Assembly (NCBI GenBank): GCA_024613925.1
Contig: GCA_024613925.1_4713.1
Length of the DNA stretch: 64,000 nt
From: a phage
Direction: 5' to 3' (one strand)
In this document: positions 4,808 through 54,416 of the stretch, in pieces
Layout of the letters: each line of letters begins with the position of its first letter
Numbering within the stretch: position 1 is the stretch's first letter
The notes under the pieces: generated by a model
The model's input: only the letters and a program-made list of their open reading frames with translations
What the model was told of the DNA's origin: nothing
Database searches by the model: none
Translations under genes and position numbers: made by a program

Positions 4808-4837
4808 ACGGATGTAAAAAAAATAACACATAGTTAA

Positions 4838-4872
4838 CCTTCTCCCCAACCCGATGAGGGAAGGGGAGAAGG
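4838..4872. terminator. GC-rich stem-loop of the conserved family, between convergent genes; candidate bidirectional terminator
   Basis: CCTTCTCCCC-AA-CCC-GATGA-GGG-AA-GGGGAGAAGG; A8 tract upstream, GGCTATGCG downstream. Confidence 0.5.
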
Positions 4873-4889
4873 GCTATGCGCTATTTAAT

Positions 4890-5165
4890 TTATTTCGAGG
4901 TTAACCACGATTCAATTGTGGTGAGTTTGCTTCTCAGTACGCGCCAACTAGGGTGTGGTGGGATCACAGCGCCTTTGTCGATTACGGTTAGCTGAACCTG
5001 GTACTTCTGTTGCATACGTGCTACCGTGTCGCTTATCGAGAGGAAAAGCTGGTAACGTTCATATGCCGTCAGTTCACTGTCCTGTTGAACTGCGTTGGCC
5101 GCTAACGTAATTTCGCGTAAGTCCTTTGCATCCACAGAGACGGTAATGAGTTTATATTGACTCAT
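4890..5165 (-). CDS. hypothetical small protein (91 aa)
   Basis: ORF with AAGGA 6 nt upstream of ATG (rc of cat 5163-5165). Confidence 0.5.
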   Translation of the reverse strand: MSQYKLITVSVDAKDLREITLAANAVQQDSELTAYERYQLFLSISDTVARMQQKYQVQLTVIDKGAVIPPHPSWRVLRSKLTTIESWLTSK

Positions 5166-5226
5166 ACGGTTTCCTTATCAACTAGGGTATTGCAGATACA
5201 ATACCCGTCGTCGGACGATAAGTTAA

Positions 5227-11242: not shown

Positions 11243-11330
11243 CACCTAGGTAATGTAAGCGTCAAATTTTTTCTATTCGCAACGTAAACGGCATAGAAAC
11301 CTCCCCCAACCCTTACGGGCTGAGGGAGGC
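11243..11330. repeat. conserved intergenic cassette, copy C (CACCTAGGTAATGTA ... GCATAGAA ... stem-loop)
   Basis: Shares CACCTAGGTAATGTA with copy A and the GCATAGAA-plus-hairpin module with copies A and B; hairpin at about 11299-11329 (CCTCCCCC-AA-CCC-TTAC-GGG-CTGA-GGGAGG). Confidence 0.5.
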
Positions 11331-11428
11331 TGACTTATGTATCACGGTGCCGGATGAATGTCCGGTGCAATGAAACCATCCGCAACGTTGTCGTCAAGAA
11401 TATCGTCCAACGAAGCAGCTACGGTAGT

Positions 11429-13651
11429 TCAGTTAGTCTGAACAGGCAGCTTGATGTTTTCAGTGTAGACCTTACGCAGGTTCACAACGTTAATCAGACC
11501 CAGCAGCGGGCAGTTGTTAACGAAGCGGCAGCGCGGCTGAACCATGGTTTCTTTAGAAACCTGACCGTTACGGGTAACCTGAGCAACAGATACCAGTTCC
11601 GGTACGTACAGGAACATACCGAAGGTCAGCGGATCCGGAGAACCCTGGATACCACGAGACAGGGTCACGAAGATCTTATCACGCAGCAGGACGTTCGGGT
11701 TATCTACAACCACGAAGTTGAAGCTTACACCAACGGTACGGAAATCACCATCGGTCTGCAGGAACTGCGGGATGTAGTTGTCAGTTGCTACTACGCAACG
11801 CGGTTTCTCATCAGCGTTGGAAGACAGCAGCTGCAGAGCTGGCTGATAACCAGACTCGGAGTACATGCGATATGCCATCTCACGAATCACGTTCATGATC
11901 GCAGCGGACACTTCAGCACGACGTTCTGCAGTGGTGGTACCCTGAACAGATTTCTCCAGGTCCAGATTGATTTCTTCGAACCACGGACGGATCAGGTAAC
12001 GACCGAAACCTTCGATCTGGATGTCGCCGAACTGACGGAAGCGAGAGGTCGCAACCGCTTTCAGTGCGTCTTTGTAGCTGAACAGTTTCTCAACCATCAG
12101 GTTGTCGAAACGTGCGTTAGCAGCTTGGATCAGAACGTCCAGGTCGGCAGCGTTTTCTTCCCAATCCAGCGGACGAGGAATGGAGAACGGAGCCAGCAGG
12201 CCGATTGCGTAACGTTCTTGCTTCATGTTGAAGTCAAGGTGCTTACCGCGTTCACGACGGTTGCTGTTGTTACGACGGATACGCAGTTCGTAACCAACCA
12301 GTTTGAAGCTCAGGTCTTCAGCCAGTTGTTTGAACTCTTCGCTCTTACGCGGTTGTTCGATGTTGTCCTGATCAACCAGGCGATACAGTTCAGCGTTAGC
12401 GCCGTTAACACGCAGACCGGCTTTCTCTACGTTGGAAGAACCGTAAACTTCGATTGCCAGCTGAGCAGCGGATTTCGAATCGATGATGTCCTGCAGCGCT
12501 TCAGCTCGTGCACCTTTAACGTCAACGGTGTGCTCATCAACGAAGATGGAGTGGGTGTCGAACGCCAGGGTCATTTTGCGGAAGTCGCCTTCCAGGGATT
12601 TCTGGAAACCGTTGGTGATCAGACCAGATACGTCGAACGGTACGTAAGAGGTTTTGCTGTGCTTGGTAGATTTGATTTCCACCAGGATTTTGGTCAGCGT
12701 GATCTGGGCGTCCAGCGCATCGGTGTTGTCGCTGTAACCGTTAGCCAGGATGCTATCGTCTTCAGCAATACCGATCATGTCGATCAGTTTATCAACAGCC
12801 AGGTAAGACGTTTTATAAGTTACGCCTTTAATTTCGATGTTGCGCGGAGCAACGATAGCTTTGTCAACGAAGTACTGCGCGTTGGCATCGTCAGCACGAT
12901 AGATCGGATGCAGATCGGTCACGTCGTTGGACAGAACGTCGTTGTACATGAACGCATCCAGCAGCGGACGACGTACCCAATCAGCCGGAGTACCGTCAGC
13001 GTTACGACGCAGGTGGTTGAACACCAGCGGACGACGGAAAGATACGTCGTAACCGATCTGGTTCGGAGCCAGAACGATGGTGTTATACAGTTCGTTACCC
13101 ATGCGGCTCAGACGAGAAGCCTTCACGTTGAACACAACGGAGTACGGCATCATGTCACGCAGTTCTTTCTGGTCGTAAGACAGCTGAACCAGTTCTTCAG
13201 ATTCGCAACCGCAGGAATCAGCAGCCATCATGACGAAGTTAGAGCTGTCAACTTCACGGCCAGACGGAGTGGTGCTGATGTTCATGGAACGTGCTTGTTT
13301 AGCGTATTCCACCGGGTTACCATGAGCCAGCATGATCAGTGCTGCTGCACGAGCCTGCTGTGCGTTCATGGTGAACAGCTGTTCTTCAATACGCTGCTTC
13401 TCTTCCGGAGTGGTGGTTTCGAAGCCCAGCATGGACAGAACCGGTTCTTCTGCTTTACGGATGTCGCTGCTGAAGCTCTTAACATCCATTTCGTTAACCA
13501 GTTTGTCCATGGATTTGAAATCAACCTTAGAAGCAGATTCCATAGACAGGAAGGTGTTCTCCAGACCTTTGTCTGCTGGTTTGCTACCATTAGCGGTCAG
13601 GAACTGGCGAGTGGCCGCGACCTGTTGGCTAAGAAGGGTTTTATCATTCAT
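11429..13651 (-). CDS. major capsid protein candidate (740 aa; size as in phiKZ-type capsid proteins)
   Basis: Very strong codon bias (the antisense strand is stop-free for 766 codons), TGTAAAGGA RBS region, placed in a head-gene block next to the inner-body-like paralogs. No direct homology test was possible. Confidence 0.5.
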   Translation of the reverse strand: MNDKTLLSQQVAATRQFLTANGSKPADKGLENTFLSMESASKVDFKSMDKLVNEMDVKSFSSDIRKAEEPVLSMLGFETTTPEEKQRIEEQLFTMNAQQARAAALIMLAHGNPVEYAKQARSMNISTTPSGREVDSSNFVMMAADSCGCESEELVQLSYDQKELRDMMPYSVVFNVKASRLSRMGNELYNTIVLAPNQIGYDVSFRRPLVFNHLRRNADGTPADWVRRPLLDAFMYNDVLSNDVTDLHPIYRADDANAQYFVDKAIVAPRNIEIKGVTYKTSYLAVDKLIDMIGIAEDDSILANGYSDNTDALDAQITLTKILVEIKSTKHSKTSYVPFDVSGLITNGFQKSLEGDFRKMTLAFDTHSIFVDEHTVDVKGARAEALQDIIDSKSAAQLAIEVYGSSNVEKAGLRVNGANAELYRLVDQDNIEQPRKSEEFKQLAEDLSFKLVGYELRIRRNNSNRRERGKHLDFNMKQERYAIGLLAPFSIPRPLDWEENAADLDVLIQAANARFDNLMVEKLFSYKDALKAVATSRFRQFGDIQIEGFGRYLIRPWFEEINLDLEKSVQGTTTAERRAEVSAAIMNVIREMAYRMYSESGYQPALQLLSSNADEKPRCVVATDNYIPQFLQTDGDFRTVGVSFNFVVVDNPNVLLRDKIFVTLSRGIQGSPDPLTFGMFLYVPELVSVAQVTRNGQVSKETMVQPRCRFVNNCPLLGLINVVNLRKVYTENIKLPVQTN

Positions 13652-14460: not shown

Positions 14461-16071
14461 ATGGACCCAAAACAGATAGCCATTAAGATTATTACGTTAC
14501 TGTTTCGTAATGCACAATTGAACCATCCCGATCCCAGTACGATCGAACATGTTAAATCCGTCTTAGATAAAGTCGAACCCCCGAAAAACCATCTCGCTAC
14601 GGACGTAGATAGAGAGGTTTTCAACAACCTGATGAATACCATTCATTGGATGTTGGAACAACCATTATCGGAACCTTTCGATAAACAACAGTTGTTACAA
14701 AGGATACGTTTAGATTGCCTTGAACAAAGCAACCTTTACGAGATTCTTGCCGACGGACTGTACGATATCGAAGACGACGCTCATATCAGTAAGGTCTGTT
14801 CACTCTATTACAACGAATTACGTAATCTGGTTACCCGCCGTCGTGTTTTCGAAACCTTTAGAAACACGTACATGGATATCAGTAACGGGCGACTTGGGGA
14901 TAAAGAATTTTTCGATGCGATGGCGAATTTGAAATTATCGCTAGACAGTATCGAAATGGATACCGAAAATCCCGAAGAGATGGCGTGTATGATTGACGGC
15001 TTTATCGCCGACAGCGAAGACGATATCGAGAAAGTTGAACGTATGTTCGTCAAAGCGATGGAACGTAACAGTCCTGAAGGTGGATTTGTAACCGGCTGGC
15101 AAGGCTTTAATAAAATGTTGGGGTCGGTCGGCGTTTTACGTCGCGGTACCTTAGGACTGATTGGTGCAATGCAGCACCGGAACAAGTCAGGTGTGTTGTT
15201 AAAACTGTTCACGCATCTGGCACTGTACAATAAACCCCATTTCTTTTTTCCGGAGCGAGCAAAGAAAGCATTACTGATTCATTTGTCGACAGAAAACGAA
15301 GTGGAAGAAAACACGCTTCAAATATACAAGAACATGCGAGAACAGGAAACAGGCGAATATGTCGATATTCGTAAGATTGACCCTCGCGAGGCATCACGTT
15401 ATGTGTTGAAGGTGTTCAATGATGCGGGTTTCTCTGTTTGTATGCGTCGTGTTGATGGGATGAGTTATAAACAACTCGCTAATCTCATCGACCATTTCGA
15501 ACGCATGGGTTATGAAGTCATGGCATTGTTCATTGACTATCTGAAAATGTTCTCATCGGAAGGGCTGGATAGAAATGGACCGACCGGCGCATGGCTCCAA
15601 GAACTCTTCAACAAAGTACGTAACCTCTGCAGCGTTAAACGTATTTTAGGTATGACCGTACACCAGCTGTCATCCGACGCGAAGATGCGTGCACGTGACG
15701 GTAACGATGAAGAGTTTGTTGACCAAGTCGCAGGTTTAAGTTACTGGGATGGTTGTAAAGGGATTGACCGTGAGATTGACCTTGAAGTGATTGTTGATAT
15801 CGTTAAGGAACCGGGCAAACGTCAAAGCTGGCAAGTCTTTGCATTAGGGAAAGACCGTCAACCGGATAACGGTTCAACGAAACCTGAAGACAAACATTTC
15901 GCGATGCCATTCCAAACCATCGGGATGCTTCCTGATGATTACGGTAAGAAAGCGGTATATTGCCGCAAGGTTGGCGGACAACCTGTCTCCGAGGGAGGTA
16001 AAGGTCCGTGGAACAAGTTCGATGAAAACGCAGCACCGAGTAATGAATTACAATTTGATTTAGAATTTTAA
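14461..16071 (+). CDS. DnaB-family (SF4) helicase-like protein with non-canonical Walker A
   Basis: ORF-track start is GTG 14377 and overlaps the divergent gene; ATG 14461 has AAAGGA RBS. C-terminal half matches DnaB motifs in order: P-loop region LGLIGAMQHRNKSG (NKS where GKT is expected, nt about 15178-15192), LSTENE (H1a-like), FIDYLKMF (compare IDYLQLM), HQLSSD (compare LSQLNR), CKGIDREIDLEVIV (compare SGSIEQDADLIM). Confidence 0.6.
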   Translation: MDPKQIAIKIITLLFRNAQLNHPDPSTIEHVKSVLDKVEPPKNHLATDVDREVFNNLMNTIHWMLEQPLSEPFDKQQLLQRIRLDCLEQSNLYEILADGLYDIEDDAHISKVCSLYYNELRNLVTRRRVFETFRNTYMDISNGRLGDKEFFDAMANLKLSLDSIEMDTENPEEMACMIDGFIADSEDDIEKVERMFVKAMERNSPEGGFVTGWQGFNKMLGSVGVLRRGTLGLIGAMQHRNKSGVLLKLFTHLALYNKPHFFFPERAKKALLIHLSTENEVEENTLQIYKNMREQETGEYVDIRKIDPREASRYVLKVFNDAGFSVCMRRVDGMSYKQLANLIDHFERMGYEVMALFIDYLKMFSSEGLDRNGPTGAWLQELFNKVRNLCSVKRILGMTVHQLSSDAKMRARDGNDEEFVDQVAGLSYWDGCKGIDREIDLEVIVDIVKEPGKRQSWQVFALGKDRQPDNGSTKPEDKHFAMPFQTIGMLPDDYGKKAVYCRKVGGQPVSEGGKGPWNKFDENAAPSNELQFDLEF

Positions 16072-16095
16072 ACGCAAAAAAAAAGATTGTACGGT

Positions 16096-16127
16096 TCCCT
16101 CCTCCAACCCGTAAGGGAAGGAGGAGG
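16096..16127. terminator. conserved-family stem-loop between convergent genes; candidate bidirectional terminator
   Basis: CCCTCCTCC-AA-CCC-GTAA-GGG-AA-GGAGGAGGG; A9 tract upstream, GGTTATGACC downstream. Confidence 0.5.
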
Positions 16128-16144
16128 GGTTATGACCGCTTTGA

Positions 16145-16471
16145 TTAACTTATTGTCATGAATTCATTAGGTGAAAATTTCCAGCCGTTCTCAGTGAGAA
16201 GCGTGTTGAGTTTCGCCGCAACGATAAGCCATGCGTGCATGGCTGTTACATCGTATTGGCGATTCACTCGACGTTGGTTTTCGATATTGATTTGCTCCTG
16301 TTCAGTGATGTTTGGATAAAGTGCGATAGCGCTAGGTTTACCCAGCGCGCTAGTCATCACCGCCGTACATTCACTGATAATGTTGTTTAAGTGGTAGTTA
16401 TACACCGTTCCACGCATGACGCGATGACGGCATTCGATAATAGCGTCGTAAATGATTTCTCGAGTAATCAT
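16145..16471 (-). CDS. hypothetical small protein (108 aa)
   Basis: ORF starting 7 nt after the stop of the upstream gene (likely translational coupling). Confidence 0.5.
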   Translation of the reverse strand: MITREIIYDAIIECRHRVMRGTVYNYHLNNIISECTAVMTSALGKPSAIALYPNITEQEQINIENQRRVNRQYDVTAMHAWLIVAAKLNTLLTENGWKFSPNEFMTIS

Positions 16472-17519: not shown

Positions 17520-17834
17520 CGTATTTTACCTTTCTATGTTAGGTGGGTTGCGGATAGAAGAATCAATGCATAGATTGATCGTTCTTTGTTAGAAATTATT
17601 GCCGAACCGGTTATGGTTATATGGTTGGTAGTACGCCATAGGCTCCGGTTTAGGGATTTCCATGGTCGGATTTTTGGAATTGATTGCCATCACGTAAATT
17701 GTTACGGGCGATACCGCGTGATTCATTTCGACGGCCACACGGTTGTTTGATCGATTGTTCAACTGGTACTGATTACGATTGGTTGATAACAGTAGAGCTA
17801 CTGCCTAAAACTCTACCGTTGTTTAGATACCGTA

Positions 17835-18695
17835 TTAGGATATACGGTGCATCGTCGGTGCGATTGGTCGTTGACCAAGGTAGAATGTATATCTCGGACG
17901 ATTTTTCGGTGCCTGGTTCGGTTGAGGATTCTTCGAATCGATAGCTAACACGTAGTACTGAAGTGTGGGGTTGAGTGTCGTCAGATAGTTTCTGATGAAC
18001 TCCTCGTTTAAACTTTCAGTCGGGGTTAGTATGTGCCCGTTGATTGTAACGACGGTACCATCGGAACGTATTTCACGAACAATGCACCAAGCCCCCGCAC
18101 CAACATCGGTAGGAATAGTCGTGCTGGGAGTAATGGTTAGATATTTATCGAAGAATTCGCAACAAAGAGGATGCATGTAGACCGTTACGGTATCATCTCC
18201 TGGCGAGGTTCTCTCTTTTGTTACAGGATCCTTCGTCGGTACAAATGTGTTAATTTTGGCTACCTTATCAGCATCTTCGTTCGCTTCGATATAAATCTCT
18301 GCTTTACCATGTACGCTCTGAGCTATACGACGTAACTGTTCGTATGTTTTCGGTGAGGTTAGCTGTACCCGACTGAGCAGCTCATCGTACCAAGCTTCGA
18401 AGGTGCTTGTTGGTATCTTAACGTATGCCTTATTTCCGGTTTCATTTTCATCCCGGAAGATAATCGCAACGGTATCAGGCTCATCAAGAGAATCCAGGTA
18501 AACAATGTGTTCGACCAACGCAGAAAACGTTTTACGTCCGGTTCCTCCATAGTACGGGTTTGCTGAATGAACCAGCCGCCAGTTACATGAAGTTTGGATA
18601 TGATCGAAGGCGTTGATCATGTTTTTACTGTAACGAAAAATTTCAGTAAAATATTCTTTACGTTCTTTACTAAGACGTTTGTATATCTTGGTCAT
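17835..18695 (-). CDS. hypothetical protein (286 aa), tandem paralog of 18749-19549
   Basis: AAGGAG RBS; C-terminal block VYMHPLCCEFFDKYLTITPSTTIPTDVGAGAWCIVREIRSDGTVVTINGH aligns with IYVHPECRTTYDRYLTIAGGTSAPSPVGIGEWRTIREVYPDGRIVTLCGR of the neighbour. Confidence 0.6.
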   Translation of the reverse strand: MTKIYKRLSKERKEYFTEIFRYSKNMINAFDHIQTSCNWRLVHSANPYYGGTGRKTFSALVEHIVYLDSLDEPDTVAIIFRDENETGNKAYVKIPTSTFEAWYDELLSRVQLTSPKTYEQLRRIAQSVHGKAEIYIEANEDADKVAKINTFVPTKDPVTKERTSPGDDTVTVYMHPLCCEFFDKYLTITPSTTIPTDVGAGAWCIVREIRSDGTVVTINGHILTPTESLNEEFIRNYLTTLNPTLQYYVLAIDSKNPQPNQAPKNRPRYTFYLGQRPIAPTMHRIS

Positions 18696-18748
18696 TTTTG
18701 TAGCTCCTTGATTAAAGTAAGGATGGATACGATTATTTATTATCGCTT

Positions 18749-19549
18749 TTAGTTTTTACCATTCCCCCAGCAGGGTTCTTCGTAAAAATGGTGCGGATAG
18801 CGATAATGAGAATTATTGGGTCTTCCTGTCGTTTCTTTCTGTGAGTCGACGACTAACGCGTAAAATAATTGGTGCTTGTCCATCATCGAAAAGTAAGAGG
18901 CAAGCAGTTTTTCGTTTAACGCGTCGCATGGTCGACAGGTACGACCACAAAGCGTTACGATACGGCCGTCAGGATAAACTTCACGGATCGTTCGCCATTC
19001 ACCGATACCAACCGGCGATGGTGCTGATGTGCCGCCCGCTATCGTTAAATATCGGTCGTACGTAGTACGGCATTCGGGATGAACGTAAATTGGCTGGGTA
19101 TTAGTACTGTCGTTTTCGGTTTGATGTTTACTCACGTATACCTCAAGGTAGATCGTTGGTAATCCGATTAGAACGCCGGTATCACGACGTTTTTTGGTAA
19201 TCCGAGGACGGATACTATCGAGCACGCTTTCCAGTTTTTCTGCGACTTCGTCAGCCGGTAATATATACCAGTATTGTGGTTCTGGGTCATCACCATGACT
19301 GAATAAGATACGACAGTCGGTGCTATTATTTTCTTCTACTTCAGGCGGGAAGATGATGGTGTGAACCGTATGACGTTCTGCGATATAAAATCCTTCGGGT
19401 CCCTCAGTTTTGGTAAGTGTAAAGGACCAGGGTGAACAATCTTCAGGTGATAAGCCTGCTAGGAAAAAGTTCGTCCGGATTGGCGCGTCCCATTTCGTGA
19501 TCATGTTAGCGTGACCAATAACACCTAACTTTTGATAAATATCTGTCAT
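18749..19549 (-). CDS. hypothetical protein (about 266 aa), tandem paralog of 17835-18695
   Basis: ORF-track start 19675 would run through the conserved hairpin; internal ATG at 19549 has GAGGA RBS 7 nt upstream. Confidence 0.6.
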   Translation of the reverse strand: MTDIYQKLGVIGHANMITKWDAPIRTNFFLAGLSPEDCSPWSFTLTKTEGPEGFYIAERHTVHTIIFPPEVEENNSTDCRILFSHGDDPEPQYWYILPADEVAEKLESVLDSIRPRITKKRRDTGVLIGLPTIYLEVYVSKHQTENDSTNTQPIYVHPECRTTYDRYLTIAGGTSAPSPVGIGEWRTIREVYPDGRIVTLCGRTCRPCDALNEKLLASYFSMMDKHQLFYALVVDSQKETTGRPNNSHYRYPHHFYEEPCWGNGKN

Positions 19550-19605
19550 GATTGTATCCTCGATTATTAAGAGAAATTTACAATGATAACAGTAACCGCT
19601 GTTAT

Positions 19606-19700
19606 CACCTAGGTAATGTAGTCGTGAAATAAACTGGGGTAATGCGAAATAAGACAGCATAGAACCCTCTCCCAACCCGTAAGGGAAGGGAGAGGGAATA
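19606..19700. repeat. conserved intergenic cassette, copy A (about 90 bp, near-identical to copy B), includes stem-loop 19665-19696
   Basis: CACCTAGGTAATGTAGTCGTGAAATAAACTG ... CGAAATAAGACAGCATAGAA-CCCTCTCCCAACCCGTAAGGGAAGGGAGAGGG-AATAT. Confidence 0.6.
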
Positions 19701-19702
19701 TA

Positions 19703-20335
19703 TCACCAATGATCGAAGGAACCAGGAGTGTTACGAACGATCTCAACTTGGAAGGTTATTGGTACTGATGGCAATGAAACATATTCGCGTTGCGATAGCG
19801 GGACGTTGTCTTCTCGCTCATCGATGCGAGCAGAACCTGTCAGAAATTGGAACATAGCGACTTGAAGCTCATCGGTGAAACGGAGGTACTCACCGATGTG
19901 TGGTGTTGCATCATATCGAATAAGTACGTTGCCAAACCGTCGTGCGATATTTGGAGTATCTGTGAACGAAACAGGGAAATCCAAAGTCATTCCCATCGTT
20001 TCACCTGGCTTCATTTTCCGAATCGACGCAATTGGCACGTCGAAGATATTCCATTCTTCTTTCATCGTGTCTGGAAACACACCGCGATACAAGATGGTCT
20101 TTTGATGACGATGAACGGGTTGTAAACGGTCAACCAATATTTTCAAAGGTTTAAGTTCTTCAGCCAATTCATAATCTGCTTGGATGTTCCACTTTGCCGC
20201 AAGTTCCATTAGGTTGGGATACGCGCTATATTTATTGACGATAGCCCAGTTAACATTACGCAAATCAATAGGAAGGAATTTGATAATTTCCTTGTTGAAT
20301 ATCCATTGGTTTAATTTCTTAATCTCCGAAAGCAT
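19703..20335 (-). CDS. hypothetical protein (about 210 aa)
   Basis: ORF-track start 20434 overlaps the upstream gene by 83 nt; the internal ATG at 20335 lies 16 nt after the upstream stop with a weak AGTGAG RBS. Start uncertain. Confidence 0.5.
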   Translation of the reverse strand: MLSEIKKLNQWIFNKEIIKFLPIDLRNVNWAIVNKYSAYPNLMELAAKWNIQADYELAEELKPLKILVDRLQPVHRHQKTILYRGVFPDTMKEEWNIFDVPIASIRKMKPGETMGMTLDFPVSFTDTPNIARRFGNVLIRYDATPHIGEYLRFTDELQVAMFQFLTGSARIDEREDNVPLSQREYVSLPSVPITFQVEIVRNTPGSFDHW

Positions 20336-20351
20336 GATGTACTCACTACAG

Positions 20352-21719
20352 CTAAACGGTTGGACGAACGGTGTTGTCTTTTTCTGGTGCAAGCCATAAC
20401 GTGACCGTACCATGGCATGTCCACTGTGGTTCACGTACAGAAGAACCAGCCATCGTTACAGCGCAATCGGTACGCATGACAACCCCGTATGCTTCGCAGA
20501 GATTGTTATCCTGCATCCATACAACTTTAGCAGGCATGCCGGGATACAACATATCCATGTTTGCGTATTCCCACACCAACTGCATTGTTCTACCGCGTAA
20601 TCCAGCAGTATTACTTAATTCACGCCACCGGTTATCGGTTACGCGTCCCATCCCTTTCGCCACCTTCACGTTATCGCTACGCTCTTCAGTTACGTACTCG
20701 CTAACGTTTACAGTACGACTGATTATTGTATCGCCTCCTTTTGATAACGTCATTCCCTGACTCATCTGACTTGCCGAAACAAAACGCCCACCCGCATTAC
20801 CTAACAACGAAGCCGCGTTATTGATGTCGTTTACCGACGCCCCTCTCGTACATGCAATTTCCACGTATTTGTCACGATTGATCCAGGTCTTGTCCATCCC
20901 CGGAAACATATCGGCAGGATAGTTGTAAAAGATAGCCGTACGGCGACCGTCAGAGAAACGGGTTTCGTCATAGAGAGGATAAATATACAGATACGGGGAT
21001 TGGTAATAACAACCGACGTCCGCTGAATAAATACCGACCTGGTTCTGGATTTTGTCTACGAGATCCATTGCGTTGGTACCATGCGGAAGAATAAGCAACT
21101 TGAACAGGTTGTCGTTATTCGGTGCAACAATATCCACACCCTGCATTTTGAATCCGGTGTCGGCTTCAACCGCAGAAAGTATCTTGCTGAATTCGAGCCG
21201 TAACACATCCAGCACTTTCGACCCGGTATAGTTCTCACCGGTTTCTGATTGCATGAAGCTTTCAAGAACAGGATCGAACAGTTGAAATTGAAGATCGACC
21301 ATTTGTTCGTAGTCTTTCTTCGAAGAATCGGTTGCGGTACGTTCGTCGTTAGCAGACATACGACTGTCTACGGTTGTTAAACAAACCGCTCGGTAGACGT
21401 AAGCTTGTGCAGCATCGTCTACGGTTTGGCGTTGTCCGCGCATCAGGCTGTACGCCTGCACGATGATGCGCATTTTAAGTTGTTGTTGGTACGGTAGAAT
21501 GTATTTTCCGTAACTGCCTGGCGGGAACTTTACAGAGATATAAAGTTCATCTCCTGCGTTACGTTCGTAGTCTCGATACGTGTGGACTTGAGTCACTAAA
21601 GGAACAGACACCGTCATTGACGGCGTGATTAATTCCGCGGTGACTTTATACGCAACAGCAACTGCTTCCTGCGCAAATGTACCGATATACCGTCCTAACG
21701 GCGTCTGTTTGTAATCCAT
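20352..21719 (-). CDS. hypothetical protein (455 aa), possibly structural
   Basis: Long ORF; its ATG is 2 nt after the stop of the upstream gene (operon-like packing). Confidence 0.6.
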   Translation of the reverse strand: MDYKQTPLGRYIGTFAQEAVAVAYKVTAELITPSMTVSVPLVTQVHTYRDYERNAGDELYISVKFPPGSYGKYILPYQQQLKMRIIVQAYSLMRGQRQTVDDAAQAYVYRAVCLTTVDSRMSANDERTATDSSKKDYEQMVDLQFQLFDPVLESFMQSETGENYTGSKVLDVLRLEFSKILSAVEADTGFKMQGVDIVAPNNDNLFKLLILPHGTNAMDLVDKIQNQVGIYSADVGCYYQSPYLYIYPLYDETRFSDGRRTAIFYNYPADMFPGMDKTWINRDKYVEIACTRGASVNDINNAASLLGNAGGRFVSASQMSQGMTLSKGGDTIISRTVNVSEYVTEERSDNVKVAKGMGRVTDNRWRELSNTAGLRGRTMQLVWEYANMDMLYPGMPAKVVWMQDNNLCEAYGVVMRTDCAVTMAGSSVREPQWTCHGTVTLWLAPEKDNTVRPTV

Positions 21720-21721
21720 GT

Positions 21722-22327
21722 TTAACGACCCCGTTGCTGTTGTTGAATGATGAATTCTTCGATCTTCGTACCACGGAATTCGCTGTGACGAACCGCTTGC
21801 AGTTGCTCTTCAACGGTTGGGCCTGCATTGAGACCACCACGACGTGCGCGGTTGATGCCGATTTTACGGCGCTGGCCGATTTCACGTAAACGTGAAGATA
21901 ATCCGCTCATTTCGGTTGGGTCTTTAATGCGACCGCGTGCAACGTTCCACAGACCACCCATGAACTCTTCGAGGATACGGCTGGCTTCGAGAGACGGTAC
22001 GCGTGCGTTAGGATCGTTTTCGAGATTGTATTTAACGTATTCCGTGTGTTCCAGAAGAAGCATGAACATCTTCATGGCGTTCACGTCAGGATTTGCGATA
22101 CGCATAGGGACACCGCGAGAATGTTTTTCAGCAGCCTGCGGTACAGTGAGCTGTGCGGGCACCTCTTCGTTCATGGCCATATCGTCGATTTCTGCGACCC
22201 CTGAAGAGTAGACACCGCTGACTTCGTTGGTGTAGTTATCCACCATGAATTTACGGGGAATCCAGAATTCGAATTTACGTTCAAATAGACGTTTGGTTGG
22301 GGTATCTTTAACGTGTTGTAGACTCAT
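21722..22327 (-). CDS. hypothetical protein (201 aa)
   Basis: ORF; start overlaps the stop of the upstream gene. Confidence 0.55.
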   Translation of the reverse strand: MSLQHVKDTPTKRLFERKFEFWIPRKFMVDNYTNEVSGVYSSGVAEIDDMAMNEEVPAQLTVPQAAEKHSRGVPMRIANPDVNAMKMFMLLLEHTEYVKYNLENDPNARVPSLEASRILEEFMGGLWNVARGRIKDPTEMSGLSSRLREIGQRRKIGINRARRGGLNAGPTVEEQLQAVRHSEFRGTKIEEFIIQQQQRGR

Positions 22328-23640
22328 GGTTCAATAGCTCCTGCTCGTAACAGCATGATAACGAACGGTGTGAAATAATAACGATCTAGCGGAGAAAGCA
22401 ACGGTATTGCGTCAACCATCTGTTTTAGTGCTGGATGGCTGATCGCTTTCTCATCGACCATATCACGTACCATACTCTCAATGATCGTCATTGGGGCTTG
22501 ATTGCGGTAGAAAGCCTCTGTGAAAACATAGTACGGATCGTCCGCTACCGATGGAAACAACGGAACGCCGTCATACTCCATCGATGTAAGGTTGGTCACC
22601 AACGGGTTTGTCGGTGGTGTGTTTTCAGGTACAGCCAACTCTTTACCGACGTCTTCACCGAGCGACGTGGTCGCAGGCCACATACAGAACCGCGCACCAC
22701 TAAAACGAATCCCGCCTGCAGCCGGGTATTGATAGAAACGCTTTGTTGACAACAGTGTGAATTTCACCGTCAACCGCGCCTCGTCTTCCCGACGTCCGTC
22801 CATGACCCATTCATAGACAGAAATCGCATTCGCTTCCTGGCTGTCGTCTACGTTAAGACGTCCGAAGTTCCATGAAGGTTTTCCTTCAAGCGACGACCAT
22901 AATTTCGTAAACGCGTTAACGCACCAGGGGTCGTAGGTTGCAGCATCTTGACCAGGAACAAGCAGTGTGTTGAGTTCACGGCTGTAGAATTCATGGTAAT
23001 ACGCGTGACAAAGTCCCAGTGCACGACGGAGATAATCATACTTACGATTGTATTTCTCCGTTGCCATTACGGGATGTTTTCCGTGCTTTAACTGGTCTTG
23101 GTCGTATAGTGTATCCTCAACGATTTTCGCTTCCAGTTCGATAAGCTGTTTTTCGTCAAGAATACGTTGGAAGGAAATATCGCATTCGTAAGCCGGTGCT
23201 AAGCTGATGTTCTTCGGCGTGATTCGGGTGATCGTGTACACCGCGATACGATGATCGAGACCGGAGATTAACAGCATGTTACCTAAAAGAGGAACCGATA
23301 CCGCCGGAAGTACACATGTACCCTCTGATTGAAAACGTGCGGTACCGTTGTCATACGACGGCGTCAATGATGACATTAACTTGATAGGGTAATGTCTGAT
23401 GCGGCGGTACTGCTGTTCAGCGATGTCGCGGTTAGCCTGAAAACTGCTTTGTTCATCATCACGACCGAGAATCTGTTCGTAATAATCGCATTCTACGGAA
23501 TAACCGGATGCGTAATTCACCAGTCCGATTTGACTATTGTATTGCTCATCCACCACCGCAGAACGATAAACATCGTCGCGAGCCTTCGCGGGCTGTTGGG
23601 GGTTGATGATGGGTTTCGCGGGCTTCTTAGCGAGCGCCAT
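22324..23640 (-). CDS. hypothetical protein (438 aa)
   Basis: Long ORF; 14-nt overlap with the upstream gene. Confidence 0.6.
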   Translation of the reverse strand: MALAKKPAKPIINPQQPAKARDDVYRSAVVDEQYNSQIGLVNYASGYSVECDYYEQILGRDDEQSSFQANRDIAEQQYRRIRHYPIKLMSSLTPSYDNGTARFQSEGTCVLPAVSVPLLGNMLLISGLDHRIAVYTITRITPKNISLAPAYECDISFQRILDEKQLIELEAKIVEDTLYDQDQLKHGKHPVMATEKYNRKYDYLRRALGLCHAYYHEFYSRELNTLLVPGQDAATYDPWCVNAFTKLWSSLEGKPSWNFGRLNVDDSQEANAISVYEWVMDGRREDEARLTVKFTLLSTKRFYQYPAAGGIRFSGARFCMWPATTSLGEDVGKELAVPENTPPTNPLVTNLTSMEYDGVPLFPSVADDPYYVFTEAFYRNQAPMTIIESMVRDMVDEKAISHPALKQMVDAIPLLSPLDRYYFTPFVIMLLRAGAIEP

Positions 23641-25192
23641 AGCGTTTCACTCCTACGATGGTACCGACAAGAATTCTCGGCACGAATAAACTACGATGTT
23701 TGAACCACGAAGCGGTTGTTGGGATACGTTTGATGGCTTCGATAAGCCCGATTAGCGTATAGCATCCCCGACTGTTCTTCTTAGGCCAGTACTTTTTATC
23801 TAAACCTAATACCGCAAACAGTTCATCCACCAGATTGGGATAACAACACAACGCTTCAAGTGTTTCAACCTGTAACTGACTTAAATCTAACAGTATCGCT
23901 AGACGAACGTGGTAATCACTCCGTAAGTCTAACGGATCTTTCGCTTCAAGATCACCAACATCGGTTAATGTCCACGCGTCTCTTGCGTAGCGGTATTTAC
24001 CCTTCCAAACCTCAAGGAAAAAAGGAGACTGGTAATGGCATTTTGACCATTCCGGGTACTCACGGAACCACCGAACAAGATCGGGATGGAATTCACCTTC
24101 TTCGGCTAACGAGTCCAACGTCACCAACAGGTTAGGTTGTTCAGGATCGATAGCAAGCAGTGCGGTGAAAAGCGTGCTTGATGGAAGCTCGGTCTCCACG
24201 CTCGATGGAGGCAGCCATTCATCCAAATCGGGATACCGATACGCTTGAATCGACGCACCTTGTTCCGGCAAGAACGAATCACGAAGAATGTCCTGATACT
24301 GCACCACCATACCACCACGACGCGCACGGGATTTATCGCGCACCGAGAGGCTTGGTTTGTAAAGGTACTCTTCGGGGAGTATCTGTTGGTGTACTTGAAC
24401 AGGATACCGTGCTACGATGTGTGTTGGTGTGTCGTACGTGTAACGGTAAGAGAAGGTTGCGTTGTACGAAGAACTGTTCTCGTTCTTCTCTGGCTTCGGA
24501 GCGTCGGTGAAATCAAATTGACCAGAGATCTCTTCTTGCATTTCCCTGATAACCAATTTAACGCTCTTACCGTCACCGGCAACTGTCGTCATGGTGGTTG
24601 CACGGTTGTCGAACCCGTCTCTAAGGTATTCGCTGAACTTATCCCCGTAACCCGCTAATGCTTCTCGGTGTGTGTGAATAACTTTTAACAGCATGAGAAA
24701 CTGTGTTGGGATCGCATAGCTGTATTCAGCGCTAAGAAAGGCAGCGACGTGCTGGCTTGTCAGCAAACGTTTCATGTCATACCACCAACGTTCGGCAGTG
24801 ACCTGATCTTCGAACCGTTTGGTGATCTGCATGGTTGCAACCATCGTACTGTAAACAGGTACCAGCGATACACCAAGGTTACGGTCTTCAAATACGGGAA
24901 GACTGTTTCGTTTGTAAACGGTATCGTACATAGAGGCCTGTTCTTCAGGGACAATGTTAAGTTCAATTTGGATAAACCCGTCAGCAGGCCCTTTTACATC
25001 CTGATCAACAACTTGCGGCGGTTGCTCGTTCGCAGCGCTCATTTTAGCGTGAAGCGCTTCCCCTCGAAAAAGAATGTTCTCCCGATTATAATCCCACCCG
25101 CAAAGCTCGCTGATCTGCCGTAACACCGCGATTGCAACCGGACGTGTTACCGTCGCGTATACGTCATTGATTTTTCGATCAAGTTTAGGCAT
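23627..25192 (-). CDS. hypothetical protein (about 521 aa)
   Basis: ORF-track start is GTG 25219; ATG 25192 has GAGGA RBS and overlaps the upstream stop by 8 nt. Confidence 0.6.
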   Translation of the reverse strand: MPKLDRKINDVYATVTRPVAIAVLRQISELCGWDYNRENILFRGEALHAKMSAANEQPPQVVDQDVKGPADGFIQIELNIVPEEQASMYDTVYKRNSLPVFEDRNLGVSLVPVYSTMVATMQITKRFEDQVTAERWWYDMKRLLTSQHVAAFLSAEYSYAIPTQFLMLLKVIHTHREALAGYGDKFSEYLRDGFDNRATTMTTVAGDGKSVKLVIREMQEEISGQFDFTDAPKPEKNENSSSYNATFSYRYTYDTPTHIVARYPVQVHQQILPEEYLYKPSLSVRDKSRARRGGMVVQYQDILRDSFLPEQGASIQAYRYPDLDEWLPPSSVETELPSSTLFTALLAIDPEQPNLLVTLDSLAEEGEFHPDLVRWFREYPEWSKCHYQSPFFLEVWKGKYRYARDAWTLTDVGDLEAKDPLDLRSDYHVRLAILLDLSQLQVETLEALCCYPNLVDELFAVLGLDKKYWPKKNSRGCYTLIGLIEAIKRIPTTASWFKHRSLFVPRILVGTIVGVKRYGAR

Positions 25193-25568
25193 CGGTGTCG
25201 TCCTCGCTAATTTCCTCACCTCCTTGTTGTCGATATCCGGTATAATGAATCAGACTGCTCTGTAGAAGCTCTTTAACGAGCCCTAGACGCGTTTTATCTG
25301 TTTCATTGGACGTTTCCATTAATGTTTCTATTTCGTTGTTTAAAACAGCGTATAGCGCTTCTAACGGCAATCCTTGGATGATTGGTTTGATGGTACCTTC
25401 CGGTAGTGCCGCAACAGGAATCTGCACGACGGTTTCATGTGCGGTATGTGGGTTGATACGGCAAATATACATACCGGGTACTGAATGTCGCGGGCACGCC
25501 GCTACCAAGCATGTCTGTTGCTGCGCACCGTTAAGTGCGAGTGAAAGAAATTTTGCTTCACGTGTCAT
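25185..25568 (-). CDS. hypothetical small protein (127 aa)
   Basis: ATG with AGGA RBS 8 nt upstream. Confidence 0.5.
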   Translation of the reverse strand: MTREAKFLSLALNGAQQQTCLVAACPRHSVPGMYICRINPHTAHETVVQIPVAALPEGTIKPIIQGLPLEALYAVLNNEIETLMETSNETDKTRLGLVKELLQSSLIHYTGYRQQGGEEISEDDTDA

Positions 25569-25618
25569 CGCAGATTCCTGTTTGAAAGATAAGATATCAC
25601 ATGATGGTCGACAGCATA

Positions 25619-25642
25619 AAGCCCACCCCGAAGGGCGGGCTG
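25619..25642. terminator. short GC-rich stem-loop followed by TTTATGCG (minus-strand reading: hairpin then TTATGCTGTC)
   Basis: GCCC-A-CCC cgaa GGG-C-GGGC with one mismatch; lies between the stop of 25657-29043 and the start of 25185-25568. Confidence 0.45.
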
Positions 25643-25656
25643 TTTATGCGTACGGA

Positions 25657-28600
25657 TTACTTGTAGGCACCGCAATGGGCTTTGATGAGGAAAAGCACCG
25701 CTTGCATCGGTTTATTGAACTGTTGCCATAACGTCAATGCCGGATGGAACAACCAATCTTCCAGGCCAAGAACAATGCCGTAGTTAATGACATTATTAAC
25801 ATCGTTCTCAATGTTGAATTCGCTATCCAGGAATTTATCGATTGAACGCAGGGTCTGCATGGCGTTGTCAGCAATAAGCCAAGCTTCATGCGCTTCACGA
25901 GCCGCACGCAGCACTGCCTCCAGTTCGCTGATAGTAGCTACCGGTAATTCCTCACTGGTGAGGTCGTCAGAAACCGTAAACTGGCGATTGATACCGGTGT
26001 AGATCCACTGCATCAGTTTCGCTGCTTCCTCGTTCGGGTTGTTACGCGTTGTCGCATAAGTCGCGCTCACCTTCACGATGTGCGTTTCACCAAGATACGC
26101 TTTGGAACCAACGCCTTTACGATCGCTGTTTTTCCACGGTTGTACGGTAGCGACCATGAGCTTGTCCCATTTCTGAATAGGAATACGCTTCAGACCAACA
26201 ACCGATCCAGCGGATGTTTCGGACTGGTTGCTCTTCCGCACTTCGCTGAGTTCACGATCGATAGCAACGATTAATTCACGCGTCATGTTACCAAGCATTT
26301 TGATTTCACCCAACGCAGCGATGAGCTTCTTCACATCGGTAACAGGTTCACCACCGATGGTAAGATGACGGATGAAACGTTTCAGAATAATCCGTTCCGC
26401 TGCTGGGTTACCGCGACGCGCTTTAGCCAATGCTTGCTGCGTTTCGGCGAACAGCTTATCCCATGGAGCCGTAGCGGCGGTATAGTAACGGTGGTTGGTT
26501 TCAATCCAGTTACCGATACGGTTGACCGCACTCTTAACGGTATCCATGAATCCTTCCATCGCAATTTCGGTAGCTTCGACGTTACCCTGGAAGTTATCAG
26601 GACCGATCTCACGTGCCGCTACCAGAATACCTTCCACAGCACTCACCGCATGGCGACCGATAGCCAGATTTCGCTGCGCTTCTTCAGCTCGCTCAACGAA
26701 TTCCACCACCGCAGGATCATCAACGATTTCCGCCTCAGCAACAACACGTGTACCGGCATCGCCTTCCAGCGTCTCGATCGTTACAACAGGATCGTTTTCA
26801 CCAGCAACATCCTGGTACTCTTCCTGTTTAAGATCACCGTTATCTGCCGCAGCGATAGCGTTCATTATGCGGATGGTGACCTCACCAAGTTCTTGCGAAA
26901 CGAATCCATAAACGGTGCAAGCAGTCGTTGCGAAGTTCATCAATGTGCGCGTACGCTGCGTGATGTAACGTGCGCCGGATTCGTTTTCCAGTTTATCGAG
27001 ATCCCGGATTAACTGCTCGGCTGTTTCTTGAAGCTGTGTTACCGCCTTCAAGAGATCTTCGTCGAACAGTTTCTTCGATGCATCAACTAACATATCAGCA
27101 TTGACGTTGGATGGTACCGTATCGCCTTGCTGTTTCATCTCGCTCAGCTCATCGCGGAACTTACGGATACCTTCTAAAGCGTCGTCAACGGAATATCCGA
27201 ATGCCTTAACGCCCGCCATTCCGAGAGCTGCTTTCATATCGCCAGGATGTTGAACTTGCTCGCCTTCCTTGCTGTTCTTTAACTCATCGAAATATTGACG
27301 TGATGCGTCCGCAATACGCTTGCTGTCTTTTACTGCGTTAACGATCTTATCAACCGATTTCGAATCGTTTGCAAGTAACGTGTCAAGCTTGTTCCATGCA
27401 ACATCAACTTTCTTCCCGTTGTTAGCCTCGCCCGGCGGTGGAAGCAGCTTCATCACTGGTGTTGTGCGTTGTTCTTTGGTGAGCTTACCAGCTTTCTCTT
27501 CGATTTTCTTTTTATTAACACCGAAAAGTTTTCTTAGGCGCGCCACGATGGCTTTTAAGAACTTCACAACCGCTTCGTAAACCGACTTCAGAATCTGTTT
27601 AAAGCGACCGGGTTTCTTGTCACCGTCTTCCAGATTAAGATCGCTGTTCAGTGCGACATCAAGCTGTTTGTACGATTCCATGATGTATTCGTCTTTGATT
27701 TCAGGACGAATCTCGAAGCTTTCCATCGGACCTTCAGCCGGACGGAATTCCATTTTCAGTTCGCCTTGCAGAGTAGGGTCGACGATGGCGATTGCTTCAC
27801 CCTGACCATCAGCGTTAAAGCGTTCAGCGTAACGAGTACGGCGAACAATAACGCTCTTATCCCCATCAAGACGACGTACCACCATGGTACCAGGAATGTA
27901 TGGTTGTTCTGTTTCAATGACGGTTACATCTGCCTCACCTTCACCGAGAATAACAGATGCGCGCTGCTCAACAACAGGAACATCTAACACACCACGGGCT
28001 TCCAGCTCTTGATGAATTTCGAACGACTCTTGTTTCAGATCTTCATCTTCTTCGTTTTCGTCGTCCTCATCATCGTCACCTTCGGTGTTTTCATCACCCT
28101 CGGTGGTTGTGTCGTCGGTGGCACCAGCGTCAGCGTCGGTGTTAGCAGGTTCTTCGGACGCAGGTTCGGTGGTGTTGTCCTCCGTGGACGACCCGTCAGT
28201 GTTATCGACATCAACATCACCTTGCAGTTCTGTTTCCTGAGCAACTGCTTCGGCTTTCTGCTCACCGGTATTACCGTCATTAGCGTCGACAACAGGTTGT
28301 TCGTCAGCGACGGTATCTTCAACCTTTTCTACTTTCTCCACGACACGTTTAATCACGGTGACTTTGATGGGTTCTTCCGTTGTTTTGGTTTCTGGCGTCA
28401 CCTCGGCTGCCGCAGCCGCTGTTTCAGCAATAGGTTCTGCTTTTTCCGGTTCGACGACATTACCCTTAACACCTTCGGTGGTTTCTGCAGGTTGCGCTGC
28501 CTGTTCGATTTGTGCCGGATTGGTTGGATCGATGGCATTAGCCGCATCCTGAATCTTGTTCTTCAGATTGTCGCGGTCAGCGCTAACGGTTGGGTCATTG

Positions 28601-31450: not shown

Positions 31451-31557
31451 TTGGGACTCCTACGTAGGAAAATCTTGGCGGGTGATCATGTCCGCCATTT
31501 ACCTTCTGAACCGTTGATTCAGAAGTCAAAAGATAACCGGATACCAACGCCATAAAA

Positions 31558-31590
31558 CCTTCCTCCAACCCAACAGGGAAGGAGGAAGGG
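31558..31590. terminator. conserved-family stem-loop between tandem minus-strand genes
   Basis: CCTTCCTCC-AA-CCC-AACA-GGG-AA-GGAGGAAGG; on the minus strand it is followed by TTTTATGG. Confidence 0.5.
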
Positions 31591-31599
31591 ATATGATGA

Positions 31600-32889
31600 T
31601 TATGCTTTTTCGGTTACAGCATCGAAATATTTCGCTGCGGCAAATACAGCATCTGCATATTGACGGTTAGCAACACGGAGAATCTTAGCTGCTAATACCG
31701 CGCTCAATCGCGCCATTTCAGAAATGGCGCTTATATAAGGGCGAACGGTTTCACGATCTGCTTCCGGTAGATTGTCGAGCATACCGTCCCATTTAGTTTT
31801 AATTTTCATACCGTTTAGTTTAGCGGTACGTTCGACAGTACTCGTTAAACTTTCCGTCTGGTTAAAATACGCAGGGTCAACAATACGAAACGCGTTAAGA
31901 TACGAAGTCAGTGCAGCTTTCAATTCGTCGTCGTTATTGAAAATGTTCGCGTTTTCGATACTACCGGTCGCGGTTTCTTCAACTTCGATCTGAATATTCT
32001 TCACGAGCGCGCAGGCCTTAATGGTATCTTTCTCAGCCAAAAGAGCGTCAAGACCTTTAACAACATATCGTTTCCCACCGCTTTCTGGTATTTTGAGTCC
32101 TTTTAACGCAGGCTTGATAGCGTAAATATAATCGTCCAGAATATCGGCAAGTGTCGTCAAATCAGTTAGTTTATTAACTTTCTTGTTAATGTCGTCAGTT
32201 TGGAGTAGTAAAAAAGCGGATGCTTGTGTGGATGCCGCTAACTGCTCGATATGTTTACGAACCTCCAACGCGTTAACCATTTTTGCGTTAGGGAACATGC
32301 TAATCATATTCCCGGTCGGTTTATTTAGTTGTTTGATGTGACGCTCGCCTTTATTTACAGCGGTTGCAACATCGGTAATTTTTTTATACGCTACCGCAAG
32401 GTTTTTGAAAAGCAGCTGAATCAGTTTACATAACTGTTCAGCCATGTTCGCAATGATTACCCAAACTGCGTATAACGCTTGTGCTGCGCGTTCTTTAAAG
32501 CCTTCCAGTACAATAGCCTGTCCTTCCACCAAACGATCGTCAGCTTGGAACATGTCTTCATCGGACATCCCCAGGTTTGCTGCTGACGTCGAAGCAATCT
32601 GACGGATAAGGGCGATGTCGCTCGCACGTGCTTCCGGGATCGTAGGCGCGATCATGTACGCGGTATCTTCCAGCGTTGCTGAGGTACGCACTGCAATTTC
32701 AGCCAGTTCGCTGGATTCATCGATCGTCTCGTCGGTGCGTCGAATCACCAACTCAACTTCGTCCTCTTCGATTTCTGCGTTGGGATCATTTTGCTCCGCT
32801 GGAATTGTCGCAAGAAGATCTTCGGCGCTCAGCAAAGCGAGTTCGAATGCGTTTTTATTGACGTTATCAAAAAGAGAGATGCGGGCCAT
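31600..32889 (-). CDS. head/inner-body-like paralog 3 of 5 (hypothetical)
   Basis: AAGGA RBS; acidic N-terminal region, then VLEGFKERAAQALYAVWVII block. Confidence 0.55.
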   Translation of the reverse strand: MARISLFDNVNKNAFELALLSAEDLLATIPAEQNDPNAEIEEDEVELVIRRTDETIDESSELAEIAVRTSATLEDTAYMIAPTIPEARASDIALIRQIASTSAANLGMSDEDMFQADDRLVEGQAIVLEGFKERAAQALYAVWVIIANMAEQLCKLIQLLFKNLAVAYKKITDVATAVNKGERHIKQLNKPTGNMISMFPNAKMVNALEVRKHIEQLAASTQASAFLLLQTDDINKKVNKLTDLTTLADILDDYIYAIKPALKGLKIPESGGKRYVVKGLDALLAEKDTIKACALVKNIQIEVEETATGSIENANIFNNDDELKAALTSYLNAFRIVDPAYFNQTESLTSTVERTAKLNGMKIKTKWDGMLDNLPEADRETVRPYISAISEMARLSAVLAAKILRVANRQYADAVFAAAKYFDAVTEKA

Positions 32890-34215: not shown

Positions 34216-34263
34216 GTGTTGTCTCCAGTAATGATTCAAAAGATAAACCTGAGCGGCATAGAA

Positions 34264-34295
34264 CCCTCTCCCTTCCCTTACGGGTTGGGAGAGGG
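34264..34295. terminator. conserved-family stem-loop with the 14-nt core in the inverted orientation
   Basis: CCCTCTCCC-TT-CCC-TTAC-GGG-TT-GGGAGAGGG; flanks (GCATAGAAC ... GATATATC) match copy 19665-19696, whose core is the reverse complement. Confidence 0.55.
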
Positions 34296-42532: not shown

Positions 42533-42553
42533 AACAAAATAGCATGAGCATAA

Positions 42554-42585
42554 CCCTCCTCCTTCCCTGATGGGAAGGAGGAGGG
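42554..42585. terminator. perfect 14-bp GC-rich stem-loop between convergent genes; candidate bidirectional terminator
   Basis: CCCTCCTCCTTCCC-tgat-GGGAAGGAGGAGGG; family variant in which the usual 2x2 internal loop is base-paired. Confidence 0.55.
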
Positions 42586-42594
42586 AATATGCTG

Positions 42595-46206: not shown

Positions 46207-46237
46207 CCTAGGTGGAGGCCAATAACCTCCACCTAGG
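46207..46237. promoter_or_regulatory. 12-bp stem-loop just upstream of the RBS of the 1198-aa gene
   Basis: CCTAGGTGGAGG-ccaataa-CCTCCACCTAGG; different sequence from the main hairpin family. Confidence 0.45.
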
Positions 46238-53755: not shown

Positions 53756-53759
53756 CCGA

Positions 53760-54368: not shown

Positions 54369-54416
54369 ATTCAAGTAAGTTGATCCTCGTTTAACAAAAA
54401 AGAAAACGCATGCGAA

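Follow-up and report, generated by a model that had tools for sequence, protein, structure and literature searches.

At 19665-19696 of the window, as we call the whole 64,000-nucleotide stretch of phage DNA analysed here, lies a GC-rich stem-loop that recurs in similar form between other genes and is usually followed by a pyrimidine-rich flank carrying the word TATG. Do these elements end transcripts, start them, or do both? An earlier note on this DNA had offered all three answers, the flank being a U-rich terminator tail, a TATG-type late-promoter start, or part of a combined terminator-promoter unit. The hairpin family is real and highly non-random, and it is largely ordinary, of a kind already mapped experimentally in phiKZ. 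On our analysis the phage is a Goslar-like jumbo phage related to phiKZ, and with a probability of roughly 0.8 the hairpins are its intrinsic, factor-independent transcription terminators. Our own computations show that the family exists, is enriched, has a characteristic position relative to genes, is directional, covaries and shares its sequence with the phiKZ motif. The mapping of 3' ends comes from the literature on relatives, and termination in this phage we infer from the homology of the signal with mapped phiKZ-type sites.

Over positions 19546-26000 the window is 97% identical to Escherichia phage vB_EcoM_Goslar (8-kb query, 18000-26000), a 237-kb, phiKZ-like, nucleus-forming jumbo phage of E. 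coli. Goslar orthologues were found for 45 window ORFs, mostly at 95-100% amino-acid identity; they include an RNA polymerase beta-like subunit, and orthologues of phiKZ-type RNA polymerase subunits are encoded. The whole Goslar genome, with 247 annotated genes, served as the comparison set. Most window genes are carried by the minus strand, so the transcribed sense of most elements is the reverse complement of the given letters. A search of the window for tRNAs returned none.

Letters and folds were checked at all 14 sites listed in the earlier note, and a hairpin is present at each. In the core type, a C/T-rich 5' arm pairs over 9-10 bp with a G/A-rich 3' arm; a 2x2 internal loop separates this stem from an inner CCC/GGG stem, which is capped by a loop of 4-5 nt. 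Hairpins of this type are at 4838, 11300, 16097, 19665, 31558, 34264, 42554 and 58449. Looser relatives start at 25619, 46207, 54418, 55484 and 59419. Sense RNAs of the family fold at -25 to -37 kcal/mol (z-scores -4.4 to -8.1), with the T10 terminator at 57810 reaching -14 kcal/mol. When a 44-nt fold was slid along both strands with a cut-off of -20 kcal/mol, 13 window hairpins reached the cut-off on both strands, compared with 0, 3 and 1 in three dinucleotide shuffles. Twelve of the 13 are intergenic, in a window of which intergenic DNA makes up 6.6%, and the other (53755) is part of a group I intron. This intron, at 53742-54067, was the sole hit of an Rfam gathering-score search of the window, in which the family hairpins found no match. 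Across 20 aligned window and Goslar copies, pairing holds in 100% of the cells and 6 of the 12 pairs vary on both sides, with compensatory examples in CCCTCTCCC/GGGAGAGGG, CCCTCCTCC/GGAGGAGGG, CCTTCCTCC/GGAGGAAGG and CATCCTCCC/GGGAGGATG. The pyrimidine-5'/purine-3' polarity of the arms holds, whichever strand is read, in 12 of the 14 window hairpins, the stem at 46207 being mixed and that at 57810 opposite.

The A-A internal loop and GNRA-like terminal loop first described for the family do not occur in every sense RNA. At 19665, 31558 and 58449 both lie on the non-transcribed strand, and in the sense RNA the internal loop is U-U and the terminal loop UUAC or UGUU. At 42554 the supposed internal loop is TT/AA, which pairs to give a perfect 14-bp stem. 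Between orthologous copies, the inner 14 nt can be inverted, as in 34264-34295 and 42554-42585 compared with Goslar 63715-63746 and 71990-72021 (AACCCGTAAGGGAA versus TTCCCTCACGGGTT); one orthologous pair is only half flipped, so that a perfect 14-bp stem replaces the 2x2 internal loop. Since these inversions separate phages that are 97% identical, the inner orientation of the hairpin is apparently not under selection. In IMG/VR the specific inner module occurs in 25 stretches; 21 of these belong to three Goslar-type contigs, Goslar itself included, and the remaining four are single matches on short contigs.

The element that raised the question spans 19654-19696 on the minus strand and lies 6 nt past the stop codon of the ORF at 19703-20350. 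Its sense RNA reads CCCUCUCCC UU CCC UUAC GGG UU GGGAGAGGG (hairpin 19665-19696), followed at 19654-19664 by the tail TTCTATGCTGT. An identical hairpin at 58449-58480 carries the same tail (58438-58480, minus). Also on the minus strand are the hairpin at 31558-31589 with tail TTTTATGGCGT (31547-31589), 10 nt past the stop codon of 31600-32889 and with the next start codon 107 nt on, and the hairpin at 34264-34295 with tail TTCTATGCCGC (34253-34295), one of the copies inverted over its inner 14 nt relative to Goslar. Downstream of the major capsid gene (11429-13651, minus), 99 nt past its stop codon, a putative terminator at 11288-11331 (minus) consists of a hairpin at 11300-11329 and then the tail TTTCTATGCCGT; in its sense RNA, G-U pairs close the internal loop to give a continuous 15-bp stem of -30.0 kcal/mol, compared with -18.5 kcal/mol for the antisense.

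Four elements lie between convergent genes, where a single hairpin would act in both directions. At 4827-4881, between genes 1898-4807 (plus) and 4890-5165 (minus), the hairpin (4838-4872) has a 10-bp outer stem, an AA/AA internal loop, a CCC/GGG inner stem and a 5-nt loop, and its tails are GCTATGCGC on the plus side and TTAACTATGTG, then a T8 run, on the minus side. The element at 16076-16138 (hairpin 16097-16128), between genes 14461-16071 (plus) and 16145-16471 (minus), has the plus tail GTTATGACCG; its minus side is without TATG and has a T9 run 12 nt downstream. The perfect 14-bp stem at 42554-42585 (element 42546-42595), between genes 39539-42532 (plus) and 42595-46191 (minus), carries the tails AATATGCTGT (plus) and TTATGCTC (minus) and folds at about -37 kcal/mol on either strand. 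At 54412-54464 the hairpin 54418-54449 (CCCCTCCCCCTGGC GGAA GCCGGAGGGAGGGG) lies 6 nt from the end of 54456-54941 (minus), with TGGGGTTTATGCGTG as its plus tail and a minus side without TATG. A8-A9 runs at 4808-4837 and 16072-16096 lie upstream of two of these convergent hairpins; read on the minus strand, they are T8-T9 runs 12-13 nt past the hairpin and give the minus direction an additional tail of more classical type.

The looser members are all on the minus strand apart from that at 54418. The element at 25611-25649 is a shorter, phiKZ-like relative with stem GCCCGCCC/GGGUGGGC, a UUCG loop and a GCAUAAA/UUUAUGC extension; its tail, GGCTTTATGCTGT, is the exact phiKZ tail motif, and the orthologous Goslar site is annotated 'putative transcriptional terminator'. 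At 46207-46237 a 12-bp stem (CCTAGGTGGAGG) with a 7-nt loop and without a TATG tail sits 15 nt before the next start codon. The hairpin at 55484-55514 (CCCTTCCCTAGCC GUCAA GGCCGGGGAAGGG) is followed by tail CTATATGTTG (element 55474-55514), and that at 59419-59446 by GGCTTTATGCCGT, again the exact phiKZ tail motif (element 59406-59446). At 57800-57827 (minus) lies what looks like a classical intrinsic terminator, GGUGGGG UUCG CCCCACC followed by U10, without TATG and with an arm polarity opposite to that of other family members; the orthologous Goslar site has an annotated terminator. Two further tandem junctions have weaker hairpins without a TATG tail right after stop codons (5185-5206 and 56565-56601), which may be extra, low-efficiency terminators outside the family.

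The hairpins had been placed at nearly every gene boundary, which overstates their frequency: they occupy 14 of the 50 junctions in the window. These are all 4 convergent junctions, 10 of the 41 tandem ones and none of the 5 divergent ones. The hairpins lie 6-130 nt past a stop codon, mostly 6-35 nt, and usually 15-207 nt before the next start codon. The Goslar genome gives the same picture, with hairpins at 16/19 convergent, 33/207 tandem and 2/20 divergent junctions; intergenic DNA, 7% of that genome, contains 57 of its 90 strong hairpins. Terminators, but not promoters, would be expected to be placed in this way. Moreover, at Goslar tandem junctions the sense RNA is stabler than the antisense in 28 of 35 cases (Wilcoxon p = 6e-4); among control hairpins within Goslar coding regions, it is stabler in 13 and less stable in 19. 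The hairpin signal is thus directional and acts at the RNA level.

The tail that follows most of the hairpins is itself enriched. TATGCYGT occurs 9 times in the window against 3.4 expected, a count that none of 100 shuffles reaches, and 6 of the 9 copies are directly 3' of family hairpins; with up to one mismatch, GGBYTTATKYYGT has 8 window matches against 2.7 expected, 5 of them on family hairpins. The claim that the flank accompanies most hairpins holds to this extent, but no TATG tail is found at 46207 or 57810, and at 16097 and 54418 it is absent from the minus side. Family tails read UUCUAUG, UUUUAUG, UUAUG or CUUUAUG; they lack the canonical uninterrupted U-tract (about 4 or more U) right after the hairpin, and U10 is seen only at 57810. 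TATG is present in the tail of 26/38 sense directions at Goslar convergent junctions and 20/35 at tandem junctions, compared with 7/37 antisense directions at tandem junctions, 0/4 directions at divergent junctions and a chance level of 5-9%. The equal presence of the tail on the sense sides of convergent and tandem junctions ties it to the gene end, regardless of whether a gene in the same orientation follows. Aligned on TATG, the tail logos of Goslar, phiKZ, 201phi2-1 and Ea35-70 agree, with Y, Y, G and T as the next positions. Free TATG in upstream intergenic DNA, with hairpins masked, shows neither YYGT context nor strand bias (63 sense versus 54 antisense), and a scan of the same DNA for strand-biased TATG located no free-standing late promoters.

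A general start-codon role for the ATG of the tail was rejected, as ORFs beginning there have a median length of 17 codons. The in-frame tail ATG at 19660 is probably part of an untranslated leader. Goslar_00047 (62 aa) starts at a terminator-tail ATG and aligns only to the untranslated-looking leader of a window ORF; it is probably a spurious gene call.

The closest known counterparts are in phiKZ and 201phi2-1. ONT-cappable-seq of phiKZ yielded 133 termination regions, and 61 predicted intrinsic terminators share one motif, 5'-BCCYCCCCHWWDGGGRRGGBYTTATKYYGT-3', at which transcript 3' ends map (Putzeys et al. 2024, PMC10914365); the listed ends fall 6-9 nt past the stem, at or just after TATG. 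'Motif A' of 201phi2-1 (n=59) is the same terminator motif, and eight strong 201phi2-1 terminators, picked for the variety of their motifs, were active in uninfected cells when tested in a terminator trap with two reporters (PMC11512511). We recovered phiKZ motif sites in a 50-kb phiKZ segment, such as GCCCTCCCTTCGGGGAGGGCTTTATGTTGT, one of them bidirectional between convergent genes 129 and 130. The window hairpins share with these sites a Y-rich 5' arm, an R-rich 3' arm and a short loop, a tail (Y)TTATG-YY-GT 1-3 nt past the stem, a location just downstream of genes that is two-way at convergent pairs, and the setting of a phiKZ-like phage with its own multisubunit RNA polymerases. The reading of the flank as a terminator tail is supported, since the mapped terminators of phiKZ and 201phi2-1 (PMC10914365) have this same tail and the flank tracks gene 3' ends. 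The window family differs from the phiKZ sites in that the window stem is bipartite (9-10 bp, a 2x2 A-A or U-U loop, then 3 bp) where that of phiKZ has about 7 bp, in that the window tail is often TTCTATG rather than TTTATG, and in the host, E. coli, and genus, Goslarvirus. The full 30-nt phiKZ IUPAC motif with up to 4 mismatches has one match in the window against 8 in the 50-kb phiKZ segment, because the window stem is longer; the arms and the tail are not the cause.

Like Rho-independent terminators in general, these elements have a stable GC-rich hairpin followed by a U-containing stretch, with 57810 as the textbook case, the phiKZ 3' ends fall 6-9 nt past the stem, and the 201phi2-1 motif terminators work with the host polymerase in the reporter. 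Unlike them, the family has a short, interrupted U-tract (UUCUAU) followed by the conserved non-U positions G, Y, Y, G, U. In the 50-kb segments of other phages surveyed for the tail, SPN3US and AR9 also have intergenic GC- or AT-rich hairpins at gene ends, but with plain T-rich tails (TTATTTTTT) and without TATG-YYGT. EL has the terminator tail in part. Erwinia phage Ea35-70 (50001-100000) keeps the tail TTATGCCG and reverses the arm polarity to 5' GGAGG...CCTCC 3', so the pyrimidine-first polarity is not required for the tail. The hairpin-plus-TTATGYYGT signal is thus common to Phikzvirus, Serwervirus, Goslarvirus and Agricanvirus, and not to SPN3US or AR9, which makes it older than these four genera. 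It is probably a terminator signal tuned to the unusual polymerases of these phages.

Could the same TATG also start the next transcript? The hairpin would then stop the transcript arriving from upstream, and the late promoter of the next gene would have as its +1 the G of the neighbouring TATG. TATG with its G as +1 is a necessary, though insufficient, late-promoter element for the phiKZ non-virion RNA polymerase (Yakunina et al. 2015, PMC4666361; PMC12809450), so that tail and late promoter share a word read by the same phage polymerase family, and tails at tandem sites lie 30-200 nt upstream of the next start codon. The mapped phiKZ starts nevertheless speak against this arrangement. In a table of 149 phiKZ start sites, each with 50 bp of upstream sequence (bioRxiv 10.1101/2023.10.13.562163 supplement), none falls on a TATG directly after a terminator hairpin; the starts with a hairpin less than 50 bp upstream sit 5-40 nt on, at a second early, middle or late motif, as in P049 (...GGGTTCCCTTATGCTATGT), P054 (...GGCTCCCTTTTATGCTGTTAGACCATGATCTTATG), P139 (...GCTACTCTTTTATGTTGCCATGGGTATCTTATGA), P075 and others. 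No hairpin lies upstream of P119L, the best-studied late promoter of phiKZ, and late promoters of phiKZ (PMC4666361) differ from the family in lacking both a conserved upstream hairpin and conserved downstream positions. In the window, 4838 and 42554 carry the TATG tail on both sides of convergent gene pairs, and in Goslar the tail is as frequent at convergent junctions, where no gene lies downstream, as at tandem ones (26/38 versus 20/35). Divergent junctions have hairpins in 0/5 cases in the window and in 2/20 in Goslar, neither of the latter with a tail, and the YYGT extension is specific to TATG linked to a hairpin. We accordingly regard a start site within the tail as very unlikely. What survives of the combined terminator-promoter unit is proximity: separate promoters often follow the terminator by 5-50 nt. 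An N4-type DNA hairpin promoter, a further candidate, was dropped on the gene-end position and the RNA-level asymmetry.

Two other explanations would remove termination from the account. In one, polymerase reads through, an endonuclease cuts in the tail and the hairpin blocks 3'-5' exonucleases, so that the mapped 3' ends would be processed ends and not termination points. ONT 3' ends cannot tell termination from trimming back to a protective hairpin, the hairpins are far stabler (-25 to -37 kcal/mol) than termination needs, and a cleavage site could explain why four genera conserve the +3 G and +4 T of the tail, which lie past the mapped 3' end. But the eight 201phi2-1 terminators worked in the two-reporter trap in uninfected cells (PMC11512511), 6-9 nt past the stem is the classical distance of intrinsic termination, and a protective hairpin and a terminator are compatible; processing in place of termination is in our estimate improbable. 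In the other, the elements would be REP/MITE-like palindromes or protein-binding cruciforms that spread through intergenic DNA with no role in transcription. Near-identical copies at many loci, the inner module in other viral contigs and the flipping of the inner segment between window and Goslar orthologous copies, typical of palindrome dynamics, would all suit such an element, although the near-identity of the copies is explained just as well if terminator modules spread by duplication. Its tail, however, is orientation-specific and tied to gene 3' ends, it is essentially absent from divergent junctions, and G-U pairs stabilise the sense RNA over the antisense, a difference that is meaningless for a DNA duplex or cruciform and argues against a purely DNA-level palindrome. 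We give this explanation almost no credence.

Under the terminator reading, transcription of a gene end would allow the C/U-rich 5' arm and the G/A-rich 3' arm to fold into a very stable RNA hairpin; the polymerase would stop 6-9 nt past the stem, inside the tail YTT(Y)TATG-YYGT, and the transcript would be released. At convergent gene pairs, one palindromic hairpin with a tail on each side would serve both directions. The tail would belong to the stop signal, and the next transcript would not start in it; where that transcript begins nearby, it would use a separate promoter further downstream. Against the terminator reading stand the tail, a poor canonical U-tract (UUCUAU), the ambiguity of ONT 3' ends already mentioned, and the members without a tail (46207, 57810 and the minus side of 16097).

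The literature searched offered no explanation of why the late-promoter word TATG should appear in a terminator tail. One tentative and rather doubtful answer is that the phage multisubunit RNA polymerase itself reads the tail as a sequence-specific pause/release signal. At late promoters its beta-like subunit, GP123, binds TATG in the single-stranded non-template strand, and the elongating enzyme might reach the register of the initiation complex at about the time that the hairpin has formed. The same four letters would then mark starts and stops, a stalled or released enzyme might pass to promoters 5-50 nt downstream, and DNA-level recognition would account for the conservation, in four genera, of G and T at +3 and +4 past the RNA end. 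In phiKZ, T011 and T015, which have the same tail, lie directly upstream of the early promoters P012 and P017; the tail is therefore not confined to late-gene regions, which counts against a specific link with the non-virion enzyme. The presence of TATG in the tail bears in any case on how these polymerases choose sites.

Downstream of three terminator tails, by 40-50 nt, exact copies of TACATTACCT occur at 11248-11257, 19611-19620 and 58395-58404 (all minus), inside a longer common block, TTTATTTCACGACTACATTACCT. In the intergenic DNA of Goslar, CATTACC occurs five times, 64-164 nt ahead of gene starts. The TACATTACCT block resembles the phiKZ middle-promoter element AAanTTACc and, judged by this resemblance, may be the real promoter following these terminators.

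With the family, the probable terminators of a Goslar-type jumbo phage of E. coli are mapped; among the Goslar counterparts of these 14 sites, the Goslar GenBank record marks only 2 as terminators. The map also exposes at least one gene call, beginning at a tail ATG, that is probably spurious.

The window departs from Goslar in several places. Some 2.7 kb within 17520-20351 are absent from Goslar and hold three minus-strand ORFs (17835-18695, 18749-19549 and 19703-20350). At 49539-50858 amino-acid identity falls to 48%, and the products of 55012-57110 are 72-86% identical, compared with 97-100% in the neighbours in both cases. The product of 42595-46191 has 1198 aa and its Goslar orthologue 930 aa, in which nothing matches the N-terminal 650 residues of the window protein. 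The plus-strand region 52649-54378 contains the group I intron (53742-54067; Rfam RF00028, 73 bits), and upstream of the intron is an HNH/NUMOD endonuclease ORF only 42% identical to its Goslar counterpart. A stop-free open frame ending near 54375 could be a downstream exon.
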